The notes beneath the pieces are model-generated. The model saw only the letters and a list, made by a program, of their open reading frames with translations. It searched no databases and was not told the origin of the DNA. 64,000 nucleotides of DNA from an uncultured Gammaproteobacteria bacterium (GTDB lineage: Bacteria; Patescibacteriota; Microgenomatia; Levybacterales; GWA1-39-11): NCBI GenBank assembly GCA_964511965.1, contig CAZEGF010000022.1:12101-76100 (forward strand), written 5' to 3'. The position numbers and the translations under genes are program-made. Position 1 is the stretch's first letter; each line of letters opens with the position of its first letter. Of the stretch, positions 1,949-54,393 are shown one piece after another.

Positions 1949-2968
1949 TCATCTGTCGATGACACCTCCCCATTCTATAGCTGTAAATCCAATACGTTTT
2001 GGAGGAGTGGGTGGATCAAATAGTTTGGTTTCAAACTTCTCATCAACACCTTTAAAGTATGCGATAAACTGGATGAAGGTATCTGGTTTTGGTGAAATTT
2101 CAACATGATCAGTTCTTTCTTTTTCCTCGCGGTCTAAAATTGAGAAGAAAATATATTTTTTGTTAAGATCTGTCAAGCGGGGAGTCCAGTATTCAACGAA
2201 TTCTTCCGATTCGAAAGAATTAAGACCAAGTTTTTGTGTTTTAATTTTAAGTTCATTTCTTATGTTTTCGGTTTTAATAAACATTCCATTGTTGGGAGCA
2301 TTTAGCGTTTTTGATTCTGACTCGTAATAAAGCTCCCTGTAGTAATTACCTTGGTATTTCAAAACTCCGCTTGGCATGGCCAACACTCCAAACCAGCCAT
2401 TATTATATTCAGGAATACTTTCTACTATGTTTCCTGACACTGTAACATCAACAAAAGTAGGTTTTTCAGGGTACAGATAAATTACCGGTTTTCCCATGCA
2501 ATACCAATGGCATGACGGATCCTCTGAAGCACGCGCCTGACATTGAGGCGTGTCGCCTGTACATGTTGGATTTGCAAGTGGTGGGAAATTCCCATTGCAA
2601 TACAGTCCAATTGGTAGATTTGGATTACAGGTGCAACCTATCCTTTCCCCATAGTGAGGGCAGTAATTGCCTGTGGGAGTAGGGATAATTGTAATTCCCG
2701 GTTGTGTGGGAATTGGGGTAACTGCTGTTGGAGTTGGAGAATCAAAATCAAGATCTGTCATGTGTAGCCCTTTGCTATCTACCTGTTTGCTACCGGATGA
2801 CGTATACGTATTTGTATCTGAAATTGGAGATTTGGGGTGCTTGAAAAATCCAGTAAAGTTCATGATGACAAGAAGAACAAGCCCCATGAAAAAAAGAGAA
2901 AGAGCAGAAAAACCCTTCTGCTGTTTAGTAGACATAAGACAGTAGACATAAGACAGAAGTTTAATCAT
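1949..2968 (-). CDS. Secreted Cys/Pro-rich protein; true start may be the internal Met at about 2935
   Basis: 339-aa ORF with a TM/signal segment after MSTKQQKGFSALSLFFMGLVLLVIM. The first 11 codons are encoded by the hexamer repeat agacataagacag, so the start at 2968 is doubtful. Confidence 0.5.
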   Translation of the reverse strand: MIKLLSYVYCLMSTKQQKGFSALSLFFMGLVLLVIMNFTGFFKHPKSPISDTNTYTSSGSKQVDSKGLHMTDLDFDSPTPTAVTPIPTQPGITIIPTPTGNYCPHYGERIGCTCNPNLPIGLYCNGNFPPLANPTCTGDTPQCQARASEDPSCHWYCMGKPVIYLYPEKPTFVDVTVSGNIVESIPEYNNGWFGVLAMPSGVLKYQGNYYRELYYESESKTLNAPNNGMFIKTENIRNELKIKTQKLGLNSFESEEFVEYWTPRLTDLNKKYIFFSILDREEKERTDHVEISPKPDTFIQFIAYFKGVDEKFETKLFDPPTPPKRIGFTAIEWGGVIDR

Positions 2969-11804: not shown

Positions 11805-13415
11805 CTAACTTTGGCCATCTGTTCCGGTCGGGGCAAGTGGAGATGCTCCTGGAAAAGCAATGACGTTAGATGGAGCTTCACCTGCAGTTGCTTGAGTACC
11901 TCCAAGTGAATCCAGTCCTGTTGCTGGTGCTGATTCGGAAACTGATTGTTGCGCTTCACCTGGGAAAGCGAGTACGTTATTTACTTCTTTTGAATTTGGA
12001 ACAATTTCCAGCTTTGGAGTTTGTGGTAGACCTGCAGCGAGTGGGCTTGAGCCATCAACCATCCCTGGTCCAGTAGCAGAAGCATTTGGATCTGTTGGTG
12101 ACATACCACCGGGAACTGCAGTTACCGGAGCGGTTGGATCAACATCAGTGTTAGCAGTAGCTACAGCGGCATCAGCGACTTCACCGGTTGTAGCTGGTTC
12201 TGATCCGGTTTCAATTGGGATATCGTGGCCAACTTCTTCACTACTGTTTAATGCTTCAGTGGTAAAAGGTGGTTTGTCTGCTGCAGCAGCAGCACCATCT
12301 GCCATTGCTTTTCCTAATGCATCTCCATCAACTGCAGCATCTCCACTAACAACAGGGGCATCAGGATGTGATGCAGTCCCATCGACTGACCAATCAGGAG
12401 GAGCTTGCATTCCATCAGCGACAGCTCCCGGACCAGCATGAACAGCTTCATCATTTGCATCAGCGGATTGAATTGGTGCTTCAGGTTCTTCAACGTGAGT
12501 TTCTGCAACTGGTTCTACCGCTGGAACAGAGGCAACAGGAGTAGTTGTGACATCAGCAACAGATTCGACTGGAGTAGTGGTCGGAGCATCAGGAAGTGTG
12601 CTTTCCTCTTGCGCAGGTTCAGCAGTTGCGCTAGGTGTAAATTCTGCAGGCTTGTCTTCAGTAGTTACTTGGGCAACAGGTTCTGCAATTGATTCTTCTG
12701 CTTCAGCCATAGGTTCAACGGGTGGCTGAGGTACAACTTCCGGTTGAGATGTTCCAAGACTTGGTGCATCTGATGCAACAACTTCTGCTGGAGCAGGTGA
12801 AGATGCGACCACTCCGCCATTTTCTGGACTTGAAATAGAATTTTGGAATGGAACACCAGTCGCAACACCGGCAGCTGTTGCATCAGGTGTTGAGAGTCCA
12901 GCGTAATTATTCTCAGGTGTTGTTGCAGTGGGTGCTTCAAACTTTGGAGCAGAGGCACCATCTGCCGTCGCTCCATTAAGGTTTGCTACATCTGGAGTTT
13001 GAAGTGTCCCATTGCCTGTTGGTATCAAATGATCAGGTGGGGTCGCAACAGCTGCAACTTCTGGCTTTTTACTTTTAAGACCCATTCCTTCCAGTGCTCC
13101 ACCAATAACTTTTCCAAACAAACCTCGTCTTTGTTCGGTCACTGGTGGTTGGTTTTGAACATCTTTCTTCTCTTCAACCATTGCGTTGTGGGTTGCTATT
13201 ATTTCAGGTGTTTGAGGTGTACCAACAGGTTCAAGTCCTGTTAAGACAGCCGGATGTTCTCCTGTTGCCTCCATATCTTGAGTAAGAGTAGTCGATTGTG
13301 CATTCGGATCAGAAGGAGCAGCAACAGACGCTTCGGCAGCAGAACTTGGGGGTACTACACCGTCAACTGGTTGAACACTAGAATTAATATTAGGGGATTC
13401 CGGTTGAATATCCAT
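11805..13415 (-). CDS. Acidic low-complexity (Pro/Ala/Thr/Val/Glu-rich) protein, probably intrinsically disordered
   Basis: 536-aa ORF with no TM segment and a locally higher-GC, strongly biased composition. Internal repeat NV(L/I)AFPG. No recognisable domain. Confidence 0.45.
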   Translation of the reverse strand: MDIQPESPNINSSVQPVDGVVPPSSAAEASVAAPSDPNAQSTTLTQDMEATGEHPAVLTGLEPVGTPQTPEIIATHNAMVEEKKDVQNQPPVTEQRRGLFGKVIGGALEGMGLKSKKPEVAAVATPPDHLIPTGNGTLQTPDVANLNGATADGASAPKFEAPTATTPENNYAGLSTPDATAAGVATGVPFQNSISSPENGGVVASSPAPAEVVASDAPSLGTSQPEVVPQPPVEPMAEAEESIAEPVAQVTTEDKPAEFTPSATAEPAQEESTLPDAPTTTPVESVADVTTTPVASVPAVEPVAETHVEEPEAPIQSADANDEAVHAGPGAVADGMQAPPDWSVDGTASHPDAPVVSGDAAVDGDALGKAMADGAAAAADKPPFTTEALNSSEEVGHDIPIETGSEPATTGEVADAAVATANTDVDPTAPVTAVPGGMSPTDPNASATGPGMVDGSSPLAAGLPQTPKLEIVPNSKEVNNVLAFPGEAQQSVSESAPATGLDSLGGTQATAGEAPSNVIAFPGASPLAPTGTDGQS

Positions 13416-21056: not shown

Positions 21057-21106
21057 ATTTGAGATTGAAATTTTTTGGTAGTAACTCTACAATAATAATT
21101 GACACT

Positions 21107-21287
21107 TTAAATCAAGAGGAGGAGTAGAGTATTGGCTCGTTGATCCCTCCAGCAACCTTTCGGCAATCTCAAGGTAAACCCAGAGATCTGAAAAGGTGCT
21201 ACACCCAACCCTATTAAGGGAAGGATTAGCTTCGATTAAATCGGAGAATAAATAAAAACCTCTCTTTTAGGGAGGTTTTTTTGTGCC
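21107..21287 (+). ncRNA. Candidate small RNA or leader: promoter-like TTGACA-17-TAGAGT, about 140-nt hairpin-forming transcript, intrinsic terminator (cctctcttttagggagg + T7)
   Basis: Seen in sequence: -35/-10-like boxes at 21101-21132 and a terminator hairpin plus T-run at 21258-21287. Contains GGTGCT...GGGAAGGA reminiscent of SRP RNA, but not convincingly so. Confidence 0.25.
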
Positions 21288-28974: not shown

Positions 28975-29235
28975 CCTCAAAACCACTCGGAATCCCACTT
29001 TTTGTCAAGAGCAAATAATCTTTAAATTGGTATAAAAATATGCTATACTACATGTTCGGTTTTAGGCCCATAGTGTGATTTATCACGCGAACGTGTTAGG
29101 AGTTTAAATCACTCTTACTACGTATAGTCTACGTTTTGCATGTAGACTTTTTTGGTCCAAAAACCCAAGCACTTTGAAAATTTGGTTTCGTATTTTTTAA
29201 TTTCATCCCGCACTTGATGCGGGATCTAATAAGTA

Positions 29236-29361
29236 CTTGATCGTGGACAAGCGGATTTCATCCGCAACTTAAAACTTAAAACTTAAAGCCTCAAAAAATT
29301 ATTTTTGTTTTGAAGTTTGTAGTTTTTTATTTGTAGTTGCTACCGCCTGCCCACGATCAAG
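29236..29361. repeat. Imperfect 19-bp inverted repeat (cttgatcgtggacaagcgg / ccgcctgcccacgatcaag) flanking an AT-rich word spacer at the left edge of GC island 1
   Basis: Arms at 29236-29254 and 29343-29361 are reverse complements with 2 mismatches. Confidence 0.7.
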
Positions 29362-29397
29362 ATTTCCATATTTGTCTTGTCTGGGAGGAGGTTCGTA

Positions 29398-29586
29398 TTG
29401 ACGAACAAGATATTAGAAAGAGTCGCAAGGCTCATTGGCAAACGCGCCCACGAAGTTGGGCATGCTGCCGTTGAGTTCGGACATATTACGGTCCACGACA
29501 TCGAACGCGCGGCTGCACGCCGCAAGCCCAGGGAAAAAGCTGACAAAGCTCATCCCGCCATCGTCAACGACAAGTCCGTCAATTAG
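29398..29586 (+). CDS. Small protein P1 (about 62 aa) with a HEVGH...E..GH motif, in the GC-rich island
   Basis: Strong SD GGAGGAGG 6 nt upstream of the TTG at 29398. The track ORF 29377..29586 is in the same frame. The multi-frame ORFs of GC-rich DNA make this uncertain. Confidence 0.35.
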   Translation: MTNKILERVARLIGKRAHEVGHAAVEFGHITVHDIERAAARRKPREKADKAHPAIVNDKSVN

Positions 29587-29618
29587 GCGGGCGCCAAGTC
29601 CTACCCAGGAGAGTATAC

Positions 29619-29861
29619 ATGTCTCACGCAAATAGGCGAGGAATCGCAGGATTCCCCCGCCGACCGAAGACCAAACCGGCAAGCTACGGTAACACGCGTA
29701 TGATGCCTATCGTCAGGACTCCTGGCGAATTGGCGGCGCTCATGACCGAGCTTCCGGAACACGAAGCCCTTAATCGGGCCTGTATTTCGATCGAGGCTGT
29801 TTACGGACTCGGTGAGCCCGTACTCTTTCGGCCTCTCGACAGCATGTACTACCACCGCTAA
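29619..29861 (+). CDS. Small protein P2 (80 aa), GC-rich island
   Basis: RBS ggagagtatacATG. Same strand and operon layout with ppsA. Confidence 0.35.
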   Translation: MSHANRRGIAGFPRRPKTKPASYGNTRMMPIVRTPGELAALMTELPEHEALNRACISIEAVYGLGEPVLFRPLDSMYYHR

Positions 29862-29882
29862 CAGCGGCGCGAAGAAAGAAAC

Positions 29883-30086
29883 ATGTCAGACCACCATCGA
29901 AGGACGAGGCGTCAGCACTACGCTGACGAATCAAACCGAGATTCGTGGGAATTTGCCAAAGCCTTTCGTCAAGCCCGTTATTTCATAAAGACGGGTCAAC
30001 TCGGGCGAGGTCAAGCTCTCATCCAACCATTCCGCGGCATACGCCGTGGTTCCATGGAACAAATCCAAAACGAGGAGAACACTTAG
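29883..30086 (+). CDS. Small basic protein P3 (67 aa), GC-rich island
   Basis: ORF ends 1 nt before the ppsA start. Its last codons provide the GAGGAG SD for ppsA. Confidence 0.35.
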   Translation: MSDHHRRTRRQHYADESNRDSWEFAKAFRQARYFIKTGQLGRGQALIQPFRGIRRGSMEQIQNEENT

Positions 30087-32405
30087 TTGGGCAAGACAGC
30101 AGTAATCGAAAGCGAACTTTCTCAGAAGACCATCTACTGGTTTTCGGAGGTAAGTCGCGATGACCTGGGAGTCGTCGGAGGGAAGGGCGCCAACCTTGGC
30201 GAACTGACCAAAGCCGGCATTCCGGTCCCACCAGGGTTCGTCGTTTCGGCGGACACATATTTTCGCTTCATCCAGATGAACAGCCTCGAGTCGCTCATCA
30301 AGAAGGAGCTTTTCGGCCTCGATGTCCACGACAGCAGGGTGCTCGATGAGCGCGCGGCCAACATTCGGCAGCGCTTCATGGATGCTCCCATGCCGCGGTC
30401 TATCGCATCGGAAATCATGGACGCGTACCGCGAACTGGGCGAAGGCCCTGTTGCGGTCCGGTCGTCGGCAACAGCCGAAGACCTGCCCGAAGCATCTTTT
30501 GCCGGTCAACAGTCGACGTACCTTAACGTCGTCGGCCCAGAGAACGTTGTTCTCGCCGTCCAGGCGTGCTGGGCATCCCTCTTTGAGGGACGCGCCATCT
30601 TCTACCGGGAAGAAGCAGGATACGACCACATGAAGGTCGGACTTGCCGTCCCGGTCCAACGGATGGTGCAAAGCGAGATCTCAGGCGTCATGTTCACGGT
30701 CGAACCCGTGACGAGCGACCCTAAGAAGATCACAATCGAGGCTGTTTACGGTCTCGGAGAAGGGATTGTTTCGGGTGAGATCAGCCCGGATCTGTACATG
30801 ATCGACAAGCAGTCTCTTCAAATCACTGATCAGACCGTCACTCCACAGCCCAAAATGATTGCAAGGGCGCCGGAGTCAGACGGAAGCCATGAGGGAGCTA
30901 ACTCGTGGCAAGACGTTCCCGAGCATCTGCAGGAAAAGCAAAAGCTCACGGACAATGAGATCCACGAACTTGCCGCTATCGGCAAGGCCGTGGAAGAATA
31001 CTACGGAAGTCATCAAGACATCGAATGGGCCTATGAGGGCGGTAAGTTCTACCTCACTCAAGCACGCCCGGTGACGACCATGACTGAAGAACAACACGCT
31101 GATGTAACGGAACACGAAGAGGAGATCGCACCGGTCATCCTCAAAGGTCAGCCGGCTAGCCCTGGAGTAGGGCACGGACCGGTCCGTATCATCACCGATC
31201 CGAAAGACATCGACCAGGTCATGCAAGGCGACGTTCTAGTTGCTGAGATGACTACTCCGGATTTCGTTCCGGCGATGAAACGAGCTTCGGCCATCATTAC
31301 CGAACGCGGTGGAAGGACCTGCCACGCGGCCATTGTGTCACGCGAGCTGGGGATTCCCTGCGTCGTCGGAGTCAAAGGTGCTACCCAAGAGCTAAAGCCA
31401 GACCAGCAGGTTTCGGTTGACGGCTCGCAAGGTCTCATCTACAACGGTGAGGCGAAAACACGCCTGGCATGGGATCAGAGGCGGAGAAAACAACTCCTCC
31501 GAAAGTCCACAATAAAGACCACTACCAGACTCTACGTCAACCTCGCCGAGCCTGAGCTAGCCGAAGTCGTTGCTATGCGCAACGTCGACGGCGTCGGTCT
31601 TTTGCGCGCCGAATTCATCGTCGCGCAAATCAACCAGCACCCGAAGAAATACGTCGAGGACGGACAGGGTGCTGAGTACACACGGCTTCTTGCGGAAGGT
31701 ATCCGTAAGTTCTGCGAAGCCTTCAAGGGTCGTCCAGTCGTTTACCGACTGACCGACTTCAAGACGAACGAGTACGCCAACCTTCGGGGAGGCGCCAAGT
31801 TCGAGGCTACCGAAGAAAACCCGATGATCGGATTCCGCGGGGCATCCCGTTATATCCAGGACACGGAAGTCTTCATGCTAGAAGTCGAGGCGATCAAGCA
31901 AGTCCGCGAGGAATTCAAGAACCTGTACGTCATGGTTCCCTTCGTCCGGACTGAAGCTGAGCTGAAAGGCGTCAAGAATCTCCTGGCCGAGCAAGGTTTG
32001 GTCAGGGGAGTGGACGACTTCAAGCTCTGGATGATGGTGGAAGTTCCCTCCAACGTTATCATCCTCGACCGCTTCATCGACGTTGGTATCGATGGGATCT
32101 CCATCGGCTCCAACGACTTGACCCAGCTGGTTCTGGGCATCGATCGCGACAGTGAGGCTCTCGCCGATACCTTCGACGAGCGCAACGAAGCTGTCATGGC
32201 CGCCATCGAAACTGCGGTCACAGTCGCACGGCGTCGTGGTATTACCGCGAGCATCTGCGGCCAGGCACCCTCCGTTTACCCGGAGGTTACCGAAAAGCTG
32301 GTGGAGTGGGGGATCACCTCCGTCTCCGTTAGTCCTGACATGATCGAGCAGACACGCGAGATCATCCACAACGCCGAGGTCAAGCTCGGCCGCGCTCCCC
32401 AGTAG
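30087..32405 (+). CDS. ppsA: Phosphoenolpyruvate synthase / pyruvate, water dikinase (PEP-utilising enzyme)
   Basis: N-terminal PPDK_N motif (GGKGANLGEL...GIPVPPGFVVSADTY), phosphohistidine domain (GGRTCHAAIVSRELGIPCVVG) and a C-terminal PEP-utilising TIM barrel. TTG start with GAGGAG SD. The region is clearly GC-rich. Confidence 0.85.
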   Translation: MGKTAVIESELSQKTIYWFSEVSRDDLGVVGGKGANLGELTKAGIPVPPGFVVSADTYFRFIQMNSLESLIKKELFGLDVHDSRVLDERAANIRQRFMDAPMPRSIASEIMDAYRELGEGPVAVRSSATAEDLPEASFAGQQSTYLNVVGPENVVLAVQACWASLFEGRAIFYREEAGYDHMKVGLAVPVQRMVQSEISGVMFTVEPVTSDPKKITIEAVYGLGEGIVSGEISPDLYMIDKQSLQITDQTVTPQPKMIARAPESDGSHEGANSWQDVPEHLQEKQKLTDNEIHELAAIGKAVEEYYGSHQDIEWAYEGGKFYLTQARPVTTMTEEQHADVTEHEEEIAPVILKGQPASPGVGHGPVRIITDPKDIDQVMQGDVLVAEMTTPDFVPAMKRASAIITERGGRTCHAAIVSRELGIPCVVGVKGATQELKPDQQVSVDGSQGLIYNGEAKTRLAWDQRRRKQLLRKSTIKTTTRLYVNLAEPELAEVVAMRNVDGVGLLRAEFIVAQINQHPKKYVEDGQGAEYTRLLAEGIRKFCEAFKGRPVVYRLTDFKTNEYANLRGGAKFEATEENPMIGFRGASRYIQDTEVFMLEVEAIKQVREEFKNLYVMVPFVRTEAELKGVKNLLAEQGLVRGVDDFKLWMMVEVPSNVIILDRFIDVGIDGISIGSNDLTQLVLGIDRDSEALADTFDERNEAVMAAIETAVTVARRRGITASICGQAPSVYPEVTEKLVEWGITSVSVSPDMIEQTREIIHNAEVKLGRAPQ

Positions 32406-32524
32406 GAGCCATAACGTGAGCGTATACACGTTTATACGAAGCCAGATTAGACCGACCGCGAGGTCGGAAATTCCGCCGGACTTATGTCCGGCACCCCCTC
32501 CGCGTATAGCGGGCAACCCAACCT

Positions 32525-32562
32525 GGGTTCCCATCGCTTGCGCGGAGGGAACCCTTTAAAAA
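32525..32562 (+). terminator. Hairpin gggttccc...gggaaccc followed by TTTAAAAAAA at the right edge of GC island 1
   Basis: Perfect 8-bp stem. The T-run is short, so this is a weak intrinsic terminator. Confidence 0.35.
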
Positions 32563-48879: not shown

Positions 48880-48940
48880 CTTTAAACGTTAAACTTAAAA
48901 CCTCAAACTGAAATTTTGTTGTGGGAAATTATATAGAAGG

Positions 48941-49930
48941 GACCCTGCTGTTTCCGCAGCAGGGTCCCAGAGAAGCGGGAGCCCGGAGGCTCCTGGTCAA
49001 TCACAGTCCGCCGTAATTCGCGCGTGCTTATCGCAGCGATGGCAGACCAGAGATGATCCTCATCATTTGCATGTCCCCATAGCGGGGAAGGTGGGCTCTA
49101 GCCCCACCTTCCCCTAGGGAAGGAACGCATAACGGTCAAGGAGAACCAAAAAACCGTCAGCGGAATCCTTTTGGGTGGGACGGGCCGACATGGGGAGGTA
49201 TGTCTACCCGTCCCGTGGAATGAGGGAGGAGTCCACATTCCGTGAAACCGCTTGGTCAGGGCGGCTTCCTCGATCAGCGGCTTATATGCCGCGGGAAAAC
49301 CGGGAAGGGCTGGACAACGAAGTCCAGCCCAATTCCGGCCGGAGACAGAAGAGGTCGAGTTTTCTGCTCCTAAGATCTTGTTCCCGAACCTGCGGGCGGG
49401 CGGATTCGCAGAGAAACAAGATCCTCTCGACCAGCGGCTTATATGCCGCGGGAAAACCGGGAAGGGCTGGACAACGAAGTCCAGCCCAATTCCGGCCGGG
49501 GATAAATCCCCTAGGGTTATCTGGTGGAGACCTAGGTGGGTAAACGGGGTGAAATGGGTTTGTCTCCTGGCCAGCGTTACCCTTCTTTATCCAGTTTCCG
49601 TACATAGGTCGGATCAGGACGGGGGTAATGCCCCCGTCCATCACCGTTATCAAGAGCTAAGGTTTTTGCGTTACCGCCTATTGGCGGCTTCGATAATGGC
49701 GGTCAGACCCTTGCGGTGTCTGCCAAATTCTTGGGCTAAAAAGCCCTGGATATAACCACAGGCGGTCCCTTGTTGGGACCATAGCTATAAGCCAGTATCA
49801 CCATGTCAAACCTCTCCAGTTTGAATTTGCTACACCCGACTAGCGGGTGGAACATGCAAATGTATGTAAAAGAGCGCCCGCAATGCGGGCAATGCCCTTT
49901 ACGGTAGAGTGAATTATAGGTCAACAGTAG
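48941..49930 (+). ncRNA. Candidate large structured non-coding RNA or RNA-like element (GC-rich, hairpin-dense, contains a 69-bp tandem-like repeat). Strand assignment tentative.
   Basis: Many perfect hairpins: gggaccctgctg/cagcagggtccc, gggaaggtgggc/gccccaccttcccc, ggacggggg/cccccgtcc, gggctggac/gtccagccc x2. No convincing ORF with an RBS. The frame-overlapping track ORFs here are GC artefacts. Confidence 0.35.
49264..49500. repeat. Two near-identical 69-bp direct repeats (cagcggcttatatgccgcgggaaaaccgggaagggctggacaacgaagtccagcccaattccggccgg) about 95 bp apart
   Basis: Copies at about 49264-49332 and 49432-49500. Each folds into two hairpins (gcggc/gccgc and gggctggac/gtccagccc). Confidence 0.9.
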
Positions 49931-49959
49931 CCCGTTTTCAATATTGTTTTAATGTGATA

Positions 49960-50145
49960 GTTTTTTTTGAAAAGCTTTTGAGGTATGAGCCCTGTCGTGC
50001 TCTATCACAACAAACATGTTTATATTTAGATGAAGTTGAGATATAAGCAAAGCTTGGCTACGCTAAGCAAAGCTTGGCTACGCTAAGCAAAGCTTGTACC
50101 TCAAAATCTATTAGTTTTTTTTGAAAAGCTTTTGAGGTATAATTA
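49960..50145. repeat. Palindrome-rich repeat block: ttttttttgaaaagcttttgaggtat x2 flanking tandem aagcaaagcttggctacgctaagc x2
   Basis: Seen directly. A third aagcttggctacgctaagcaaagc copy sits at 46165-46200. Confidence 0.85.
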
Positions 50146-50193: not shown

Positions 50194-50379
50194 ATGGTTT
50201 TTGTAAAAAAACAACCAGGGGATAGCCCTGATGCCATGATAAGAAAATTTTCTCGCAAAGTAATGAGCGAAGGTATTATTACTGAGATGAAAAAAAGAGA
50301 ATTTCATCTCAAGCCTTCATTGGCTAAAAAATTCAAAAAAGCTCTGAAGCAGAAAATGGCAAAACACAATCAGTATTAA
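50194..50379 (+). CDS. rpsU: 30S ribosomal protein S21
   Basis: MVFVKKQPGDSPDAMIRKFSRKVMSEGIITEMKKREFHLKPS is canonical S21. RBS aggagg upstream. Confidence 0.9.
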   Translation: MVFVKKQPGDSPDAMIRKFSRKVMSEGIITEMKKREFHLKPSLAKKFKKALKQKMAKHNQY

Positions 50380-50462
50380 GTTTAGAATAAAGGAGTAGGA
50401 ATAAAGAATAAAGGAACTTGCTTAATACTTAATTCTTAATACTTAATTCTAATTTTCAAAGT

Positions 50463-50849
50463 ATGAATTCTATCTCAATCCCAATTTACGTGGAGAGTCG
50501 GTATAAAATTAATCGAAAAAGGATTAAGGAGACTGTCATTAAAGTGCTTTTAAAACAACATATTACAAGTCCTGTTGAGGTGAGCATTGCTGTAATTGGC
50601 AATCGCAAAATGCGTGCTCTTAACAAAAAATATAGAGACATAGATAAATCCACGAATGTCCTTTCTTTTTCCCAGACCGAAGGTGATGGTGTCATGCAAC
50701 CCCCGGACAAGCTTTATTTAGGGGACATCGTCCTTTCTTTCCCGAAAGTAATTGAGGAGTGTGCCCGTGACAATATGTTGATTGATGACCGAGTAGACGA
50801 ATTAGTCGAGCACAGTCTCATGCATCTTCTTGGCTTCCACCACAGATAA
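50463..50849 (+). CDS. ybeY: Endoribonuclease YbeY
   Basis: HSLMHLLGFHH (HxxxHxxxxxH) zinc motif and a length of 128 aa. Confidence 0.9.
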   Translation: MNSISIPIYVESRYKINRKRIKETVIKVLLKQHITSPVEVSIAVIGNRKMRALNKKYRDIDKSTNVLSFSQTEGDGVMQPPDKLYLGDIVLSFPKVIEECARDNMLIDDRVDELVEHSLMHLLGFHHR

Positions 50850-50955
50850 AGTGAATTAAGGGTTAAGAATAAAGTATTAAGGGTTTACACCTGAATTTAT
50901 TTCGAATATACTGCTTTTGCTTAATACTTACTTCTTGATTCTTTATTCTTAAGTT

Positions 50956-52437
50956 ATGGTATATTACAGAAAATACAGACCCCAAACAATTTCCGATCTT
51001 GATCTTTTTTACGTTCGAGAAAAGCTTTCAGCAATTCTTTCATCAAAAGAAATCCCTCACGCATTTTTATTTACCGGTAGTAAGGGTCTTGGAAAAACTT
51101 CATCTGCTCGAATTTTGGCAAAGGCAATCAACTGCACAGAAAGAGTATCTAGCAACTTGCAACTAGCATCTAGCAAGAAGCAAGAAGCAAGAAGCCAGGA
51201 GCCTATTTCCATTGAACCTTGTAATAAATGTGATGTGTGTGTCTCAATAACCAATGGGTCAAATATTGATGTCCTTGAAATCGATGCTGCCTCGAATGGG
51301 GGAGTAGAGGAAATGCGTACTCTCAGGGAGAGAGTTAAATTTGCATCTTCAACCCTCAAGAAAAAAGTGTACATAATCGATGAGGTGCATATGTTATCCA
51401 CCGGTGCATTTAATGCACTTTTAAAAACACTGGAGGAGCCACCTTCTCATGTAGTATTTGTTCTGGCAACAACGGAGCTGCATAAATTGCCTGCAACGGT
51501 TGTTTCTCGTACCTTTCAAGTTCAATTTGAAAAGCCCTCACAGGATGAATTAATTCATTCATTGAAAAGAATAGTTACAGGTGAAAAATTGAAAGTTAAT
51601 GACGAAGTTTTGACAGAAATATATAAAGTTGCCGAAGGAAGTTTTCGGGATGGTGCAAAAATTTTGGAAGAATTGGCGCTTTCTTCCGGTGGCAAACATA
51701 TAACGATAGACCTATTTGAAAAAACTTTTCATACGAAAGGATTGAATGATGAGGTGGTAGCTCTTCTTGAAGCATACGCCTCAAAAAACGCAAAAGAGGG
51801 GCTTCAGACAATAAATGCATTATATGAATCAGGCGCCGACTTTAAGATAGTTATCGAAAAATTAGTTGATCATTTACGGGGGTTACTGATGCTACGAAAT
51901 GGAATAACAAGCGATGTGCAAGATATTAAGGATTTGAATATTGATAATATTCGATCGCTTTTAGAGCTTGCCAATGAAGCTTATGGAGAACTAAAAATAT
52001 CAGTGATACCACAATTACCGTTAGAGCTTATGACTGTCAAGTATTGCATTATAGATAGGGGACAGAAGTCAGAAGACAGCAGGCAGGAGACAGTAAACAG
52101 TAGTCAGAAGTCAGAAGGAAAAAACCAAACGGTTGTCATTGAGAGGAGTGAAACGACGAGGCGCCACCATGAAATGGCAAGTACTCTTAGGGTGCAATCT
52201 GATAATACAACTCTACTTAAATCCCTCATTGATGAACTAAATATTGTTAACAAACCAGGCGCTGCATTATTGAGGTCGGCAAAGGAGGCTGTTTTGGATA
52301 AAGAGACAATGGTTATTTATACTCCTTTTCCCATTCACGCAGAGCGGTTGAAATCTGAAAAAGTATACCCCGATCTTCTTAAATCCGCAGGAGTAGTCGC
52401 GGGTCGCAAGGTTGATCTTGCCATAAAAATTTCCTAA
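50956..52437 (+). CDS. dnaX: DNA polymerase III subunit gamma/tau
   Basis: GLGKTSSARILAKAINC Walker A, zinc module CNKCDVC, DEVHMLS box. A 24-aa insertion (VSSNLQLASSKKQEARSQEPISIE) and a later SQKSEG block are encoded by hexamer repeats. Confidence 0.9.
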   Translation: MVYYRKYRPQTISDLDLFYVREKLSAILSSKEIPHAFLFTGSKGLGKTSSARILAKAINCTERVSSNLQLASSKKQEARSQEPISIEPCNKCDVCVSITNGSNIDVLEIDAASNGGVEEMRTLRERVKFASSTLKKKVYIIDEVHMLSTGAFNALLKTLEEPPSHVVFVLATTELHKLPATVVSRTFQVQFEKPSQDELIHSLKRIVTGEKLKVNDEVLTEIYKVAEGSFRDGAKILEELALSSGGKHITIDLFEKTFHTKGLNDEVVALLEAYASKNAKEGLQTINALYESGADFKIVIEKLVDHLRGLLMLRNGITSDVQDIKDLNIDNIRSLLELANEAYGELKISVIPQLPLELMTVKYCIIDRGQKSEDSRQETVNSSQKSEGKNQTVVIERSETTRRHHEMASTLRVQSDNTTLLKSLIDELNIVNKPGAALLRSAKEAVLDKETMVIYTPFPIHAERLKSEKVYPDLLKSAGVVAGRKVDLAIKIS

Positions 52438-52448
52438 AAAACAAAAAA

Positions 52449-52473
52449 GGCCACCTCCTGGGTGGAGGTGGCC
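52449..52473. terminator. Bidirectional hairpin ggccacctcc-tggg-tggaggtggcc, flanked by an A-run upstream and a T-run on the minus strand
   Basis: Perfect 10-bp stem. On the minus strand it is followed by TTTTTTGTTTTTT, so it is a strong terminator for the minus-strand small-ORF unit and probably also for dnaX. Confidence 0.7.
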
Positions 52474-52515
52474 TGATTTGCACAGTGAACTCTGGGAGTT
52501 GGAAGGCCCTGCCTT

Positions 52516-52809
52516 TTATGAAGTGCCCGACTGGGCGTTTCGCAGATCGTGTTCGTACTGGATTGCGTTGAACATGCACTTGCAGTACATGCCGTCCATG
52601 TAGCCACTGCCGAGGCAGAGACAATTCTGGCTGGGTCTGTCATGCAGCGTTCCGGTGTAGACACCACGAAGCTCGGTTTCTGTCTTGTTGGCCGGCCGAG
52701 CCTCAGGGGTGCGGATCCTACGCTCCGCCGACAGCCTGAGATCCCATACCGAAGGTTGTGGTGCTTGTAGAACCGGAGCCTTACCATTGCTGGTAGGTGT
52801 TCTTGCCAT
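52516..52809 (-). CDS. Small Cys-rich protein (97 aa; ...SQNCLCLGSGYMDGMYCKC...) in GC island 3
   Basis: RBS gaaagggtgag-N7-ATG. Shares a [DE]x2-4NC[LW][CL] motif with ORFs at 53712 and 53946. Frame choice in GC-rich DNA is uncertain. Confidence 0.35.
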   Translation of the reverse strand: MARTPTSNGKAPVLQAPQPSVWDLRLSAERRIRTPEARPANKTETELRGVYTGTLHDRPSQNCLCLGSGYMDGMYCKCMFNAIQYEHDLRNAQSGTS

Positions 52810-53002
52810 CTTGTTGGCTCACCCTTTCTGTTCCGTAAGGAACTGTTGCTTCAGAGGATCCGAAGCAATTGCTATCCTTTTGCAGGATCGGCCCCGTCTC
52901 TCGACGGGGCTTCTCCCCGGCATTTCCCTTGCCTGACTTGACTGCGCTCGGTGGTAGTTACCTCCTTTTCGTCATTTTTAACGCCCTTGGGGACGATGAC
53001 GT

Positions 53003-53149
53003 CTAGTGGATCTGAGTTACCAGAATGGCTATTGCAACTGCGAATGCAGAGCATACCATCAAGGCAGAGTAGGCTGTTTGTTTCCGATATGCTGCCTGGC
53101 GGGCAGCCTTGGAGTGAGGCGGCGGGGGTGGCCCCTTTTTCCTGAACAA
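53003..53149 (-). CDS. Possible 48-aa proline-rich small membrane peptide (MFRKKGPPPPPHSK...AFAVAIAILVTQIH)
   Basis: Strong SD AAGGAGAGG 8 nt upstream of the TTG. C-terminal TM helix. Preceded on the minus strand by an AT-rich promoter-like tract. Confidence 0.3.
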   Translation of the reverse strand: MFRKKGPPPPPHSKAARQAAYRKQTAYSALMVCSAFAVAIAILVTQIH

Positions 53150-53359
53150 GACTGTACCTCTCCTTGTGTCGTATTCGACAACCAACATGCAATTCTCAAA
53201 TAAATTGTAAATTGGTTGTCGACTACGACTTCTCCCAAAATTTCAAAGTGCAAATAAATACATTTAGCACAATTTCTTTACAAGCAAAAAAAGTAAAGAA
53301 TTATCCTATTTGTGGCTAGATTATAGCATATAGTAGTTTTAAATGAGGATATGGCAAAA

Positions 53360-53380
53360 GGCCGTCCGTGGAGGACGGCC
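53360..53380 (-). terminator. Intrinsic terminator (ggccgtcc-gtggag-gacggcc + TTTTG on minus strand) ending the A-B-C small-ORF operon
   Basis: Perfect 7-bp GC stem followed by a U-tract on the minus strand, about 20 nt after the stop of ORF 53400..53684. Confidence 0.55.
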
Positions 53381-53399
53381 CAAAATTGCACGGTGATAT

Positions 53400-53684
53400 T
53401 TATGGATGTTCATTCTTCTCGATGTAAAGTTGGACAAGCCTTATCCACTCTGGCTTGATGGTCGGCCAATTTTGCCGCACATACGGGTGCGGAAAGTTGT
53501 TGTAGAGCCAAGCCTCGAGCGTGCCAGTCGAGAAAGTGCGCTTCGGTCCACCTGGTGGCTTGCGAAACCTCCGTTCGAGAGGTAAACCATTTGGATAGGA
53601 AATTGCCACCGACCAGTAGTCTTGGTTGACGGTTGGAGAACGCATCTCCAGAGAAAGTCCAGCCGTGAGATGTAGACTGATCAT
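53400..53684 (-). CDS. Small protein C (94 aa), GC island 3
   Basis: GGAG 9 nt upstream of the ATG. The alternative overlapping frame (53410..53697) lacks an RBS. Confidence 0.3.
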   Translation of the reverse strand: MISLHLTAGLSLEMRSPTVNQDYWSVAISYPNGLPLERRFRKPPGGPKRTFSTGTLEAWLYNNFPHPYVRQNWPTIKPEWIRLVQLYIEKNEHP

Positions 53685-53711
53685 TATCCATCTCCATAGG
53701 GAAACTTGGTG

Positions 53712-53930
53712 CTAGCGCGTTGGGATGTGAAGTGATTTCCTGATCTCATCTTGCGTCATATAGACACACAGGCAGTTCATGGGTTCGCCTTCGTCGGTGG
53801 TGTCGGGCTTGACGCCGCGATCGCACTTGAGAACGCAGTCGGGGCTGAACGGGTACTTGTGAGGCCCGCGGCCCGCTTGTAGCAGTTGTTCCCGAGCTTC
53901 GGAATAGTGAGAATCCTCATTGTATTCCAT
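53712..53930 (-). CDS. Small Cys-rich protein B (72 aa; CVLKCD...NCLCVY)
   Basis: RBS GGAAGAG 8 nt upstream of the ATG, and tight spacing after ORF A. Confidence 0.4.
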   Translation of the reverse strand: MEYNEDSHYSEAREQLLQAGRGPHKYPFSPDCVLKCDRGVKPDTTDEGEPMNCLCVYMTQDEIRKSLHIPTR

Positions 53931-53945
53931 CAGATGTGCTCCTTC

Positions 53946-54191
53946 CTAACAGTCATGGTACCCATACAGATCGTAAGAAACGATGGGTCGTGGTTTTGGA
54001 ATGATTTCAAGCAGCCAGCAATTTTCATGTTGAGCCGCTTGGTTGAATTCGTCTTCGCACGAAGGAACGTGCCCTTGCTCAAAGTACGAATTGTGTTCTG
54101 GATCAAGGCAGAGCCTCGATTTGACGTGTTGACCGCAGAGTGTGCAGTCTCGAGGTGCGCCGTTGACTTTTACGCCTATGAGTTGAGTCAT
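53946..54191 (-). CDS. Small Cys-rich protein A (81 aa; CTLCGQH...C...C...NCWL)
   Basis: Strong SD tcAGGAGGgaaaATG. First gene of the minus-strand trio. Confidence 0.45.
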   Translation of the reverse strand: MTQLIGVKVNGAPRDCTLCGQHVKSRLCLDPEHNSYFEQGHVPSCEDEFNQAAQHENCWLLEIIPKPRPIVSYDLYGYHDC

Positions 54192-54393
54192 TTTCCCTCC
54201 TGACTACCGCTTCAGGCAAAGAATTGCCCAAGGCGGTAGCCAAAAAGGAATCCATAAATTTCAAAGTGCTGAAAATCATGATGAGAACGCCATAGTAGAG
54301 CGCATCTACTAATTAATTCTCAAATTTAGAACGATTATACATCGAAACAGATTGTAAAACGATAATTTGTAGCCTATAATTCATTTTTGCACT

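Follow-up and report, generated by a model that had tools for sequence, protein, structure and literature searches.

Two tandem small-protein units beside dnaX: a possible type-I-toxin-like RNA lock in a cargo-exchange frame

Why does a GC-rich island of small genes stand between housekeeping genes of an AT-rich bacterial genome, and what holds it together? The question is raised by a 64,000-nucleotide stretch of contig CAZEGF010000022.1 (assembly GCA_964511965.1, from an uncultured bacterium), which is called the window here. In the window, five small open reading frames (ORFs) lie on the minus strand between a dnaX-like gene and a polyprenyl synthetase gene. A previous sequence-only reading had pointed out this island and had proposed a horizontally acquired cassette of paralogous Cys-rich peptides, which might be toxin/antitoxin-like, bacteriocin-like or phage-derived. 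We followed up this reading by computational analysis. The island consists of two tandem units, each bracketed by a pair of complementary boxes; unit 2 is an old resident beside dnaX, and the content of unit 1 is replaced exactly at the inner edges of its boxes. We tentatively favor the view that the two units produce type-I-toxin-like locked mRNAs, and that the same boxes double as a frame for cassette exchange.

The island and its shared frame

The G+C content (GC) of the region 52350-54150 is 0.50-0.57, against 0.30-0.42 in its flanks (GC profile along the window), and host GC is about 37%. An AT-rich dip at 53100-53400 (GC 0.41-0.43) divides the island into two blocks. The five ORFs belong to two units, each with its own predicted promoter and terminator. 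Unit 1 encodes ORFs A, B and C, and unit 2 encodes a 48-aa peptide and a 97-aa four-Cys protein (Table 1). The sequence-only reading had described this switch in composition directly after dnaX, the AT-rich tract, the two minus-strand blocks with five ORFs and their GC hairpin terminators, and all of these were confirmed at the places that it gave, the hairpins at 52448-52474 and 53360-53380. Pfam domains agree with its naming of the dnaX and polyprenyl synthetase neighbors.

Island genes differ from host genes in two further respects. GC at third codon positions (GC3) is 0.49-0.67 in the island ORFs and has a median of 0.28 in the host, a foreign composition. A Shine-Dalgarno (SD) match of at least 4 nt is absent in 42 of 59 host ORFs, and a match of at least 6 nt is found in only four of the 59; in contrast, all five island ORFs have the former and three of the five have the latter. 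The SD strength of the island is thus atypical of the host, as had been claimed. The island and both its flanks are 100% identical in contigs of more than 15 independent metagenome assemblies, drawn from ENA, JGI and Logan. Because the island and both junctions are identical across so many independent assemblies, a mis-join or a contaminant is excluded.

Both units are built in one order: extended -10 promoter, leader hairpin, 5' box, cargo, complementary 3' box and terminator. The 5' box is 19-24 nt long and has a conserved proximal half, GCACTTTGAAATT. Its 19-nt pattern, GCACTTTGAAATTT[AT][TG]GGA (short form GCACTTTGAAATTT..GGA), occurs at 54269-54251 and 53251-53233; the window has three matches to the pattern, where 0.15 would be expected. 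As found by a repeat search, an imperfect reverse complement of the 5' box lies just before each terminator, and inverted boxes of 19-20 nt bracket each block in this way. The 3' box of unit 2 is nearly invariant in four lineages. The terminator of unit 1 was not listed by the terminator scan because only four T follow its hairpin. Several known elements were considered as the identity of the box, namely sigma-54 promoter, CIRCE, LexA, Fur, Rex, dif and attC, and were rejected by eye.

The third copy of the 5' box heads a second GC-rich island (29040-32530), which contains a PEP-synthase/PPDK-like gene at 30087-32405 (here ppsA; GC3 0.68). This gene is preceded by a GC-rich leader of about 900 nt with small ORFs (69, 80 and 67 aa) that have strong SDs. 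The third box lies behind a TGCTATACT promoter and a terminator-like hairpin. The best pairing of its distal half is at 32435-32448, 30 nt past the ppsA stop codon, which is the top of 245 windows over 3.7 kb downstream.

Cargo replacement at the boxes and the predicted RNA lock

Related contigs, referred to by handles such as L089, show that the two units have different histories. Unit 2 adjoins the 3' end of dnaX in L089, L092-L095 and L120-L122. Its identity to the window is 75% in L089, where dnaX is 85% identical, and 69% in L092, where dnaX is 76-78% identical. Synonymous divergence (dS) of unit 2 between divergent relatives is 0.7-0.9, and its GC3 is 0.61-0.75 in genomes whose dnaX has a GC3 of about 0.3. 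Since unit 2 has diverged roughly in step with dnaX and has kept its GC3, it is an old resident of the lineage, not a recent import. Unit 2 is, as judged from these relatives, a conserved, selected and lineage-specific module fixed beside dnaX. Amelioration models do not predict that genes stay GC-rich and SD-dependent for a long time within an AT-rich, SD-poor genome. In a scan of genome contigs with a dnaX pattern, the universal YIIDEVHM dominated, and the best match had 42% identity among the matches listed; the scan thus carries no information on relatives of the host or on synteny.

Unit 1 exists with three cargo sets in near-identical strains. L098 is 98.5-98.7% identical to the window on both sides of the unit 1 cargo, and L120/L121 are 96.8% identical on the left. 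In both L098 and L121, similarity to the window stops completely at 54249 and sets in again at 53407, and these positions are the inner box edges. From 53407 on, L098 matches the window at 98.5%. L121 matches at only 88% from there because its unit 2 is a mosaic, in which the 5' untranslated region (UTR) and the peptide are an L089-type allele and the 97-aa ORF is window-type. In the flank of unit 1, the window and L098 differ at three single nucleotides, all in the leader; two are in the hairpin loop (54303-54304) and one is 3' of the stem (54292). The cargo of L098 comprises an 88-aa protein with three transmembrane (TM) segments, a 57-aa 2-TM protein and a 102-aa ORF C homolog. That of L121 comprises a 69/77-aa basic protein, a 77-aa 2-TM protein and a 102-aa ORF C homolog. 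ORF C is the sole cargo gene kept in all three cargo types. L092 and L093 have no unit 1; their leader is of the window unit 1 type and their post-box sequence is of the unit 2 type. Because the leader and the post-box sequence match different units, L092 is, relative to the window, a chimera in which a unit 1 leader and a unit 2 body meet within the box.

Several contigs end inside the island, and L111 ends at 53405, at the unit 1 3' box; this is what branching of an assembly graph at a polymorphic site would give. In L122 (430-870), the 5' box of unit 1 is contained in the 3'-terminal part of a 144-aa AT-rich ORF, next to a tRNA_SAD gene, and not downstream of the polyprenyl synthetase promoter. 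The left neighborhood of the locus is rearranged in L122, because homology to L121 begins only 22 nt upstream of the box.

Folding of the predicted transcripts joins the two boxes of each unit. Throughout each transcript, the best duplex partner of the 5' box is the 3' box of its own unit (-20.1 and -27.4 kcal/mol). The helix that closes the boxes is present in the minimum-free-energy (MFE) fold of each window unit and in its centroid fold, and independent MFE folds of the L092 and L089 homologs contain the same closing helix. Against dinucleotide shuffles, the two whole transcripts of the window are much more stable (z = -9.2 and -7.4). In the folds of unit 1, the arm UUCCUUUUU, directly past the 5' box, masks the SD of ORF A (AGGAGGG, 54195-54201). 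In the MFE folds of unit 2 of the window and of L092, the SD of the 48-aa peptide pairs with an anti-SD, CCUUCC in the window, which lies 2 nt upstream of the 3' box. This SD and its anti-SD change together between lineages, from GGAGAGG/CCUUCC in the window to GGAGG/CCUCC in L092. Likewise, the distal 10 bp of the box helix show three two-sided changes between unit 1 and unit 2 (AUUUAUGGAU/AUCCAUAAAU vs AUUUUGGGAG/CUCCCAGAGU). The box helix of unit 2 contains two G.U pairs, which become A.C mismatches if read on the other strand.

From these folds we propose the following mechanism. The island would comprise two tandem, independently transcribed small-protein operons on one regulatory frame, each with a sigma-70-type extended -10 promoter. 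Pairing of the boxes would close an RNA of 0.8-0.9 kb into a panhandle beside the terminator stem. In unit 2, this pairing would bring the anti-SD onto the SD of the 48-aa peptide, and in unit 1 the anti-SD directly past the 5' box would mask the SD of ORF A. Because box and anti-SD pairing would hide the SD, the primary transcripts would be closed to translation of the first cistron; they would be stable, and the first cistron would stay untranslated until refolding or processing. The logic of such a lock would be that of the hok and aapA1 type I toxin mRNAs. Thus, the boxes would act as RNA, and the lock would control translation or stability. Unit 1 is a cargo slot, in which the content is replaced exactly at the inner box edges and a gene of the ORF C family is always kept. 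We propose that the boxes, being conserved, therefore also provide short homologies for cargo exchange.

Several observations weigh against a lock of this kind. In the MFE fold of L089, the SD pairs locally and not with the 3' anti-SD. The island ORFs themselves have ordinary local structure (z = -0.6 to -3.0), and RNA structure is therefore rejected as the cause of the persistent GC-richness. All three units share an invariant proximal half of the 5' box, which is as compatible with protein recognition or recognition at the DNA level as with RNA pairing. Covariation counts are small because only three to five divergent sequences are available. By terminator scan and inspection, no convincing pair of antisense promoter and terminator was found on the plus strand opposite the 5' UTR of unit 2 or the peptide. 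The predicted transcripts carry several cistrons and exceed known type I toxin mRNAs two- to fivefold in length, and unit 1 of the window encodes no hydrophobic peptide.

According to the main rival, the boxes work as DNA: either a site-specific recombinase acts on them, as in dif modules or shufflons, or they are terminal inverted repeats that bound a non-autonomous element. The units would then be mobile cassettes and RNA pairing incidental. The cargo replacement is indeed base-exact at the boxes in two independent comparisons, and the L092 layout is what two directly repeated 5' boxes would yield on recombining. A protein may recognize the proximal half-box, as its invariance suggests, and Acinetobacter plasmids are known to have modules flanked by Xer sites in inverse orientation (PMC13141974, PMC6449649). 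However, the boxes have no 11-6-11 internal dyad of the dif type and no XerD arm in any register, and no target-site duplications were seen on inspection. No recombinase gene adjoins the units, and the promoter and the terminator lie outside the repeats. The two arms are imperfect (16/19) and differ by G.U-compatible changes, and among about 30 contigs there was no inverted-orientation, empty-site or circular allele. Moreover, the boxes are placed exactly where an end-to-end helix of the mRNA with an adjoining anti-SD needs them. We regard recombination sites as an unlikely explanation of the boxes.

Another explanation is that the 5' box is a transcription-factor operator or promoter element of a small GC-rich regulon, made up of both units and the ppsA-like island. 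The 3' copies would then be secondary sites, for looping or as a roadblock, or coincidental. This agrees with the same half-box heading three separate GC-rich units, one of them with an enzyme gene, and with its position a short distance downstream of a canonical extended -10 promoter in every unit. Yet an operator leaves unexplained that each 3' box covaries with its own 5' box, that an anti-SD stands beside the 3' box, and that the swaps end at the box edges. Unlike most operators, the box is not an internal palindrome. We consider the operator rather improbable.

A bolder version of the locked-mRNA reading may also be considered. The island could represent an undescribed cassette platform of an uncultivated, AT-rich and SD-poor lineage, in which the boxes serve both as RNA lock and as exact cargo exchange points. 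A conserved 5' box and a cargo-specific complementary 3' box would then frame GC-rich, SD-dependent genes as locked transcripts, among them genes of small membrane and Cys proteins and possibly the whole ppsA island. We give such a platform a low probability. If true, foreign or conflict genes would be both expressed and quarantined in such a slot, which would differ from integrons, dif modules and classical toxin-antitoxin (TA) loci.

Genes of the two units and the rest of the window

The 48-aa peptide has homologs in L089, L092 and L121, in which the basic Pro-rich N-terminus is shared and the sequence of the hydrophobic tail has diverged; in L098 the peptide is identical. Between the window and L092, the proportion of nonsynonymous differences is 0.31 and that of synonymous differences is 0.90. 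This ratio indicates that the peptide is under purifying selection. Its layout is that of a tail-anchored membrane peptide, which may be toxin-like. The spacer RNA behind it is more conserved than the ORFs around it. In an alignment of four sequences it has 46 pairs, of which four have changes on both sides, and its folding z is -3.8; Rfam gave no match. A 16-nt stretch in a hairpin loop and stem of this spacer (52847-52862) is perfectly complementary to 2516-2531, within the mRNA of a 339-aa ORF (1949-2968, minus strand). This is the only candidate trans-pairing found in the window, and it is probably due to chance, because its E value is 0.025.

The 97-aa protein belongs to a very small family: a search of 5.8 billion proteins yielded only four clusters, of which P0009 is a strain variant of 96% identity that keeps NCLCLG. 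The site reads N-C-x-N-C-x-G-x-G in three homologs of other lineages, and NCLCLG of the window is a lineage-specific deletion of one codon. In ten pairwise comparisons the ratio of nonsynonymous to synonymous rates (dN/dS) was 0.26-0.50, about 0.3, and by this measure the 97-aa ORF is under purifying selection. Its AlphaFold2 model has a predicted local distance difference test (pLDDT) score of 70 and no structural match in PDB, and Pfam gave no family at threshold.

In unit 1, a search of the same 5.8 billion proteins with ORF A recovered only itself, and it is an orphan. ORF B has no match in the library scans of Pfam, PHROG, PADLOC and NCBIfam, the large protein collections not having been searched with it. 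Both show GC higher at first than at second codon positions, a coding-type periodicity, and both have a well-placed SD. A 102-aa ORF of L098 shares 54% identity with ORF C, and L121 has another allele; these homologs, at 54% identity or less, share its frame, and among the 5.8 billion proteins only the query itself was found. Because diverged homologs in L098 and L121 use the same frame, the frame of ORF C is settled against the alternative 53410-53697. Homolog evidence and GC periodicity rule out this frame and another alternative, 52434-52787. The single-sequence AlphaFold2 model of ORF C (pLDDT 73) has four strands and three helices, and a fold search of PDB gave no match.

The sequence-only reading had recognized none of the five proteins, and this did not change. 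The five island ORFs and the ORFs of the alternative cargo gave nothing above noise in Pfam, PHROGs, PADLOC and NCBIfam. PDB contained no relative of the five proteins by sequence, and Rfam, with gathering and E-value thresholds, gave only chance miRNA and snoRNA matches on the island. The proteins are all orphans or members of near-orphan families, and any function assigned to them would be new.

These searches bear on the idea of a recently acquired foreign cassette (phage moron, plasmid, or bacteriocin or ribosomally synthesized and post-translationally modified peptide (RiPP) module) of paralogous Cys-rich peptides. GC3 and SD usage are alien to the host, each unit, like a phage moron, comes with a promoter and a terminator of its own, and unit 1 is strain-variable with A and B lacking known relatives (B as judged by family libraries). 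The horizontal origin that had been proposed is consistent with the composition, the SDs and the exchangeability of unit 1. It does not suit unit 2, which is resident beside dnaX in at least three divergent relatives and is still GC-rich there, and housekeeping genes flank the island. The search for viral and plasmid relatives was negative: neither the INPHARED phages nor the PLSDB plasmids matched the island (blastn), IMG/VR gave no relatives when queried with ORFs A and C, the 97-aa ORF, its family profile and the pattern of the 3' box, and PHROGs had none for the five ORFs. The origin from a phage or plasmid thus failed, and homology of the whole island to a known element was not found in the phage, plasmid and family searches. 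Modification or export genes are absent from the locus and family scans were empty, which speaks against a bacteriocin or RiPP precursor. The suggested paralogy of A, B and the 97-aa ORF was rejected by BLASTP. Comparisons of A with B and with the 97-aa ORF gave E > 1, and B matched the 97-aa ORF only over 19 residues (E = 0.005); there is no paralogous family of Cys peptides. The likeness of NCLCLG in the window to NCLCV of ORF B is secondary because the former results from the deletion described above. We consider a recent foreign cassette quite improbable.

We consider it very improbable that the ORFs are artefacts, whether of non-coding DNA with high GC or of a contaminant brought in by mis-assembly. 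Neither A nor B has homologs, and gene callers disagree, often leaving the 97-aa ORF and the peptide uncalled and in one pipeline placing ORF C in another frame, but the selection on the 97-aa ORF and the peptide and the shared frame of the ORF C homologs already refute this for those three, A and B have coding periodicity, every ORF has an SD at the right spacing, and sequence and junctions recur identically in the assemblies.

Table 1. Features of the two units and the third copy of the 5' box (positions in the window)
Feature	Position	Strand	Remarks
Unit 1 promoter, extended -10 TGTATAAT	54334-54341	-	sequence reading; GATGTATAATC conserved upstream in L092, L098, L121
Unit 1 leader hairpin TAGTAGA-TGCGC-TCTACTA	54293-54311	-	homologous to L092 leader hairpin
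Unit 1 5' box GCACTTTGAAATTTATGGA	54251-54269	-	repeat search and pattern count
Unit 1 post-box hairpin, 5' arm UUCCUUUUU	54195-54249	-	whole-unit MFE and centroid folds
ORF A	53946-54191	-	81 aa, six Cys, one CxxC; GC at codon positions 1/2/3 0.60/0.37/0.49; called as gene in several assemblies
ORF B	53712-53930	-	72 aa, four Cys; GC at codon positions 1/2/3 0.59/0.40/0.67
ORF C	53400-53684	-	94 aa; stop codon inside unit 1 3' box
Unit 1 3' box ATCCATAAATATCACCGTGC	53388-53407	-	complementary to unit 1 5' box
Unit 1 intrinsic terminator GGCCGTCC-TCCAC-GGACGGCC-TTTT	53356-53380	-	hairpin 53360-53380, only four T after
Unit 2 promoter, extended -10 TGCTATAAT	53320-53328	-	conserved in L098, L121
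Unit 2 leader hairpin	53274-53300	-	sequence reading
Unit 2 5' box ATTTGCACTTTGAAATTTTGGGAG	53232-53255	-	conserved in L089, L092, L098, L121
Unit 2 5'-UTR hairpin, 27-nt arms, variable AT-rich loop	53168-53229	-	5' UTR local z -5.8
SD of 48-aa peptide AAGGAGAGG	53157-53165	-	predicted pairing with anti-SD 52501-52506
48-aa peptide	53003-53149	-	TTG start; basic poly-Pro N-terminus and C-terminal hydrophobic helix of ~20 residues
Spacer RNA	52810-53002	-	conserved GGAGGU, four or five hairpins
97-aa four-Cys protein	52516-52809	-	family motif N-C-x-x-C-x-G-x-G-Y ... Y-C-x-C
Anti-SD CCUUCC	52501-52506	-	2 nt upstream of unit 2 3' box
Unit 2 3' box CTCCCAGAGTTCACTGTGCAAAT	52476-52498	-	nearly invariant in four lineages including L090 (protein only 40% identical)
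Unit 2 terminator, 11-bp stem and T-run	52438-52474	-	hairpin 52448-52474; abuts dnaX stop codon
Third 5' box copy GCACTTTGAAAATTTGG	29169-29185	+	heads GC-rich ppsA-like island

The wider neighbors of the island are rpsU, ybeY, dnaX, polyprenyl synthetase, ybaB and prs. rpsU and a few other host genes have a very strong SD despite the largely SD-poor host genes. AT-rich repeats surround rpsU and ybeY (49950-50140 and 50377-50956), including a 36-nt direct repeat (49951 and 50105) and a perfect 20-nt tandem repeat (50044-50083); ybeY is bracketed by inverted repeats of 29-40 nt. Between a HIT-family gene and rpsU, the region 48900-49800 is GC-rich (0.55-0.59) without a convincing ORF. Many GC hairpins occur in it, together with a direct repeat of 98 nt whose copies (49269-49366 and 49426-49523) are 88% identical; its local folding z is -4.4 to -7.9 on both strands, and Rfam gave no match. 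A GC-rich counterpart lies at the same position in L093 (about 14.6-15.5 kb), where a single long blastn match covers the HIT-proximal part only. We regard 48900-49800 as a candidate for a large structured non-coding RNA. Another local rise in GC, at 11805-13415 (minus strand), corresponds to a 536-aa low-complexity ORF rich in Ala, Pro, Thr and Glu. This rise reflects amino-acid composition and not foreign codon usage, because GC is 0.69 at first codon positions and only 0.20 at third positions. A SAM riboswitch (RF00162, 46.3 bits) at 21106-21231 is the sole Rfam match at gathering level in the window, and no tRNA or tmRNA gene was found within the 64 kb.

Comparison with known systems

Phage morons resemble the island in being self-contained units of promoter, gene and terminator with deviant composition. 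The island differs in that it lies outside a prophage, has no phage homologs in IMG/VR, INPHARED and PHROGs, and includes a unit that is inherited in synteny beside dnaX. The autonomy of the units is thus shared with morons, and with housekeeping neighbors and no phage matches a moron was rejected. In integrons, promoterless cassettes are each followed by an attC site (R''-L''...L'-R', GTTRRRY core), and an intI integrase and attI lie in the vicinity. Integron cassettes were also rejected, from the units and their borders: each unit has its own promoter, and GTTRRRY/RYYYAAC cores are absent from the unit borders. For an element with terminal inverted repeats, such as a miniature inverted-repeat transposable element, the inverted repeats are present and the direct duplication outside them is absent; the polymorphism swaps the interior, and the repeats stay, where such an element would be present or absent as a whole. 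The island was not assigned to this class.

At the protein level, the 97-aa family recalls the CxxCxGxG finger of DnaJ. Three of five members have C-x-x-C-x-G-x-G followed seven residues later by C-x-C, which makes four possible zinc ligands in those members. Unlike the DnaJ finger, the family has one motif rather than four, and this motif is one residue short in the window (CLCLGSG). Four members were scanned and did not match the DnaJ zinc finger PF00684 (DnaJ_CXXCXGXG) at E values up to 5, the model has no PDB match, and this identity was rejected.

The dif modules of Acinetobacter plasmids are similar in that short inverted repeats bound small tandem gene modules, which differ between similar replicons (PMC13141974, PMC6449649). 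These modules often carry toxin-antitoxin genes or small ORFs, and a dif site is defined as a 28-bp sequence with two 11-bp inverted arms and a 6-bp spacer (PMC13141974, PMC6449649). The boxes of the island have neither this Xer architecture nor similarity to dif, and they were not assigned to dif modules since they have no internal dyad. In addition, the island is chromosomal and lies between housekeeping genes, and unlike dif sites its boxes covary within each unit like an RNA helix and are coupled to an anti-SD.

The closest likeness is to type I toxin mRNAs, such as hok/sok, aapA1/IsoA1 and the families of T1TAdb. T1TAdb describes as features of these mRNAs a 5' stem-loop, sequestration of the SD by an anti-SD, a long-distance interaction between the 5' and 3' ends, and a 3' terminator stem-loop (PMC8594479). 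The island shares with them a hydrophobic peptide of less than 60 aa, namely the 48-aa peptide, and an mRNA that is highly structured, presumably stable and has a stem-loop at its 5' end. Also shared are the masking of the SD by an anti-SD, placed either immediately upstream or close to the 3' end, and a long-distance 5'-3' helix beside the terminator stem-loop (PMC8594479). The mRNA features were found in silico, in the folds of four transcripts and in the covariation of SD and anti-SD. As for small hydrophobic peptides, TM proteins are also present in the unit 1 cargo of L098 and L121. The island differs from type I toxins in several points. No antisense antitoxin RNA was detected at the island in the plus-strand scan and reading. 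The transcript is 0.8-0.9 kb long and polycistronic, with a conserved four-Cys protein behind a structured spacer, and the peptide appears tail-anchored with a basic Pro-rich N-terminus. The frame also carries cargo without a membrane peptide, as in unit 1 of the window, and possibly an enzyme gene, ppsA. No described type I toxin/antitoxin family matched in Pfam, NCBIfam, PADLOC and Rfam. Membership in type I TA systems cannot be claimed, because an antisense RNA was not found, no sequence family matched and toxicity of the peptide is only putative. Of the options named in the sequence-only reading, toxin/antitoxin-like is nevertheless the closest; it suits the island in one particular form, absent from that reading, namely the mRNA architecture of type I toxins.

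The taxonomic range of type I toxin-like systems is considered narrow, and it is mainly by their RNA architecture that they are found. If the RNA lock is true, type I architecture would extend to a deep uncultivated lineage, in a larger and polycistronic format. Furthermore, the base-exact replacement of cargo links an RNA regulatory frame to cassette turnover, which lies outside the standard picture of both TA loci and cassette systems.

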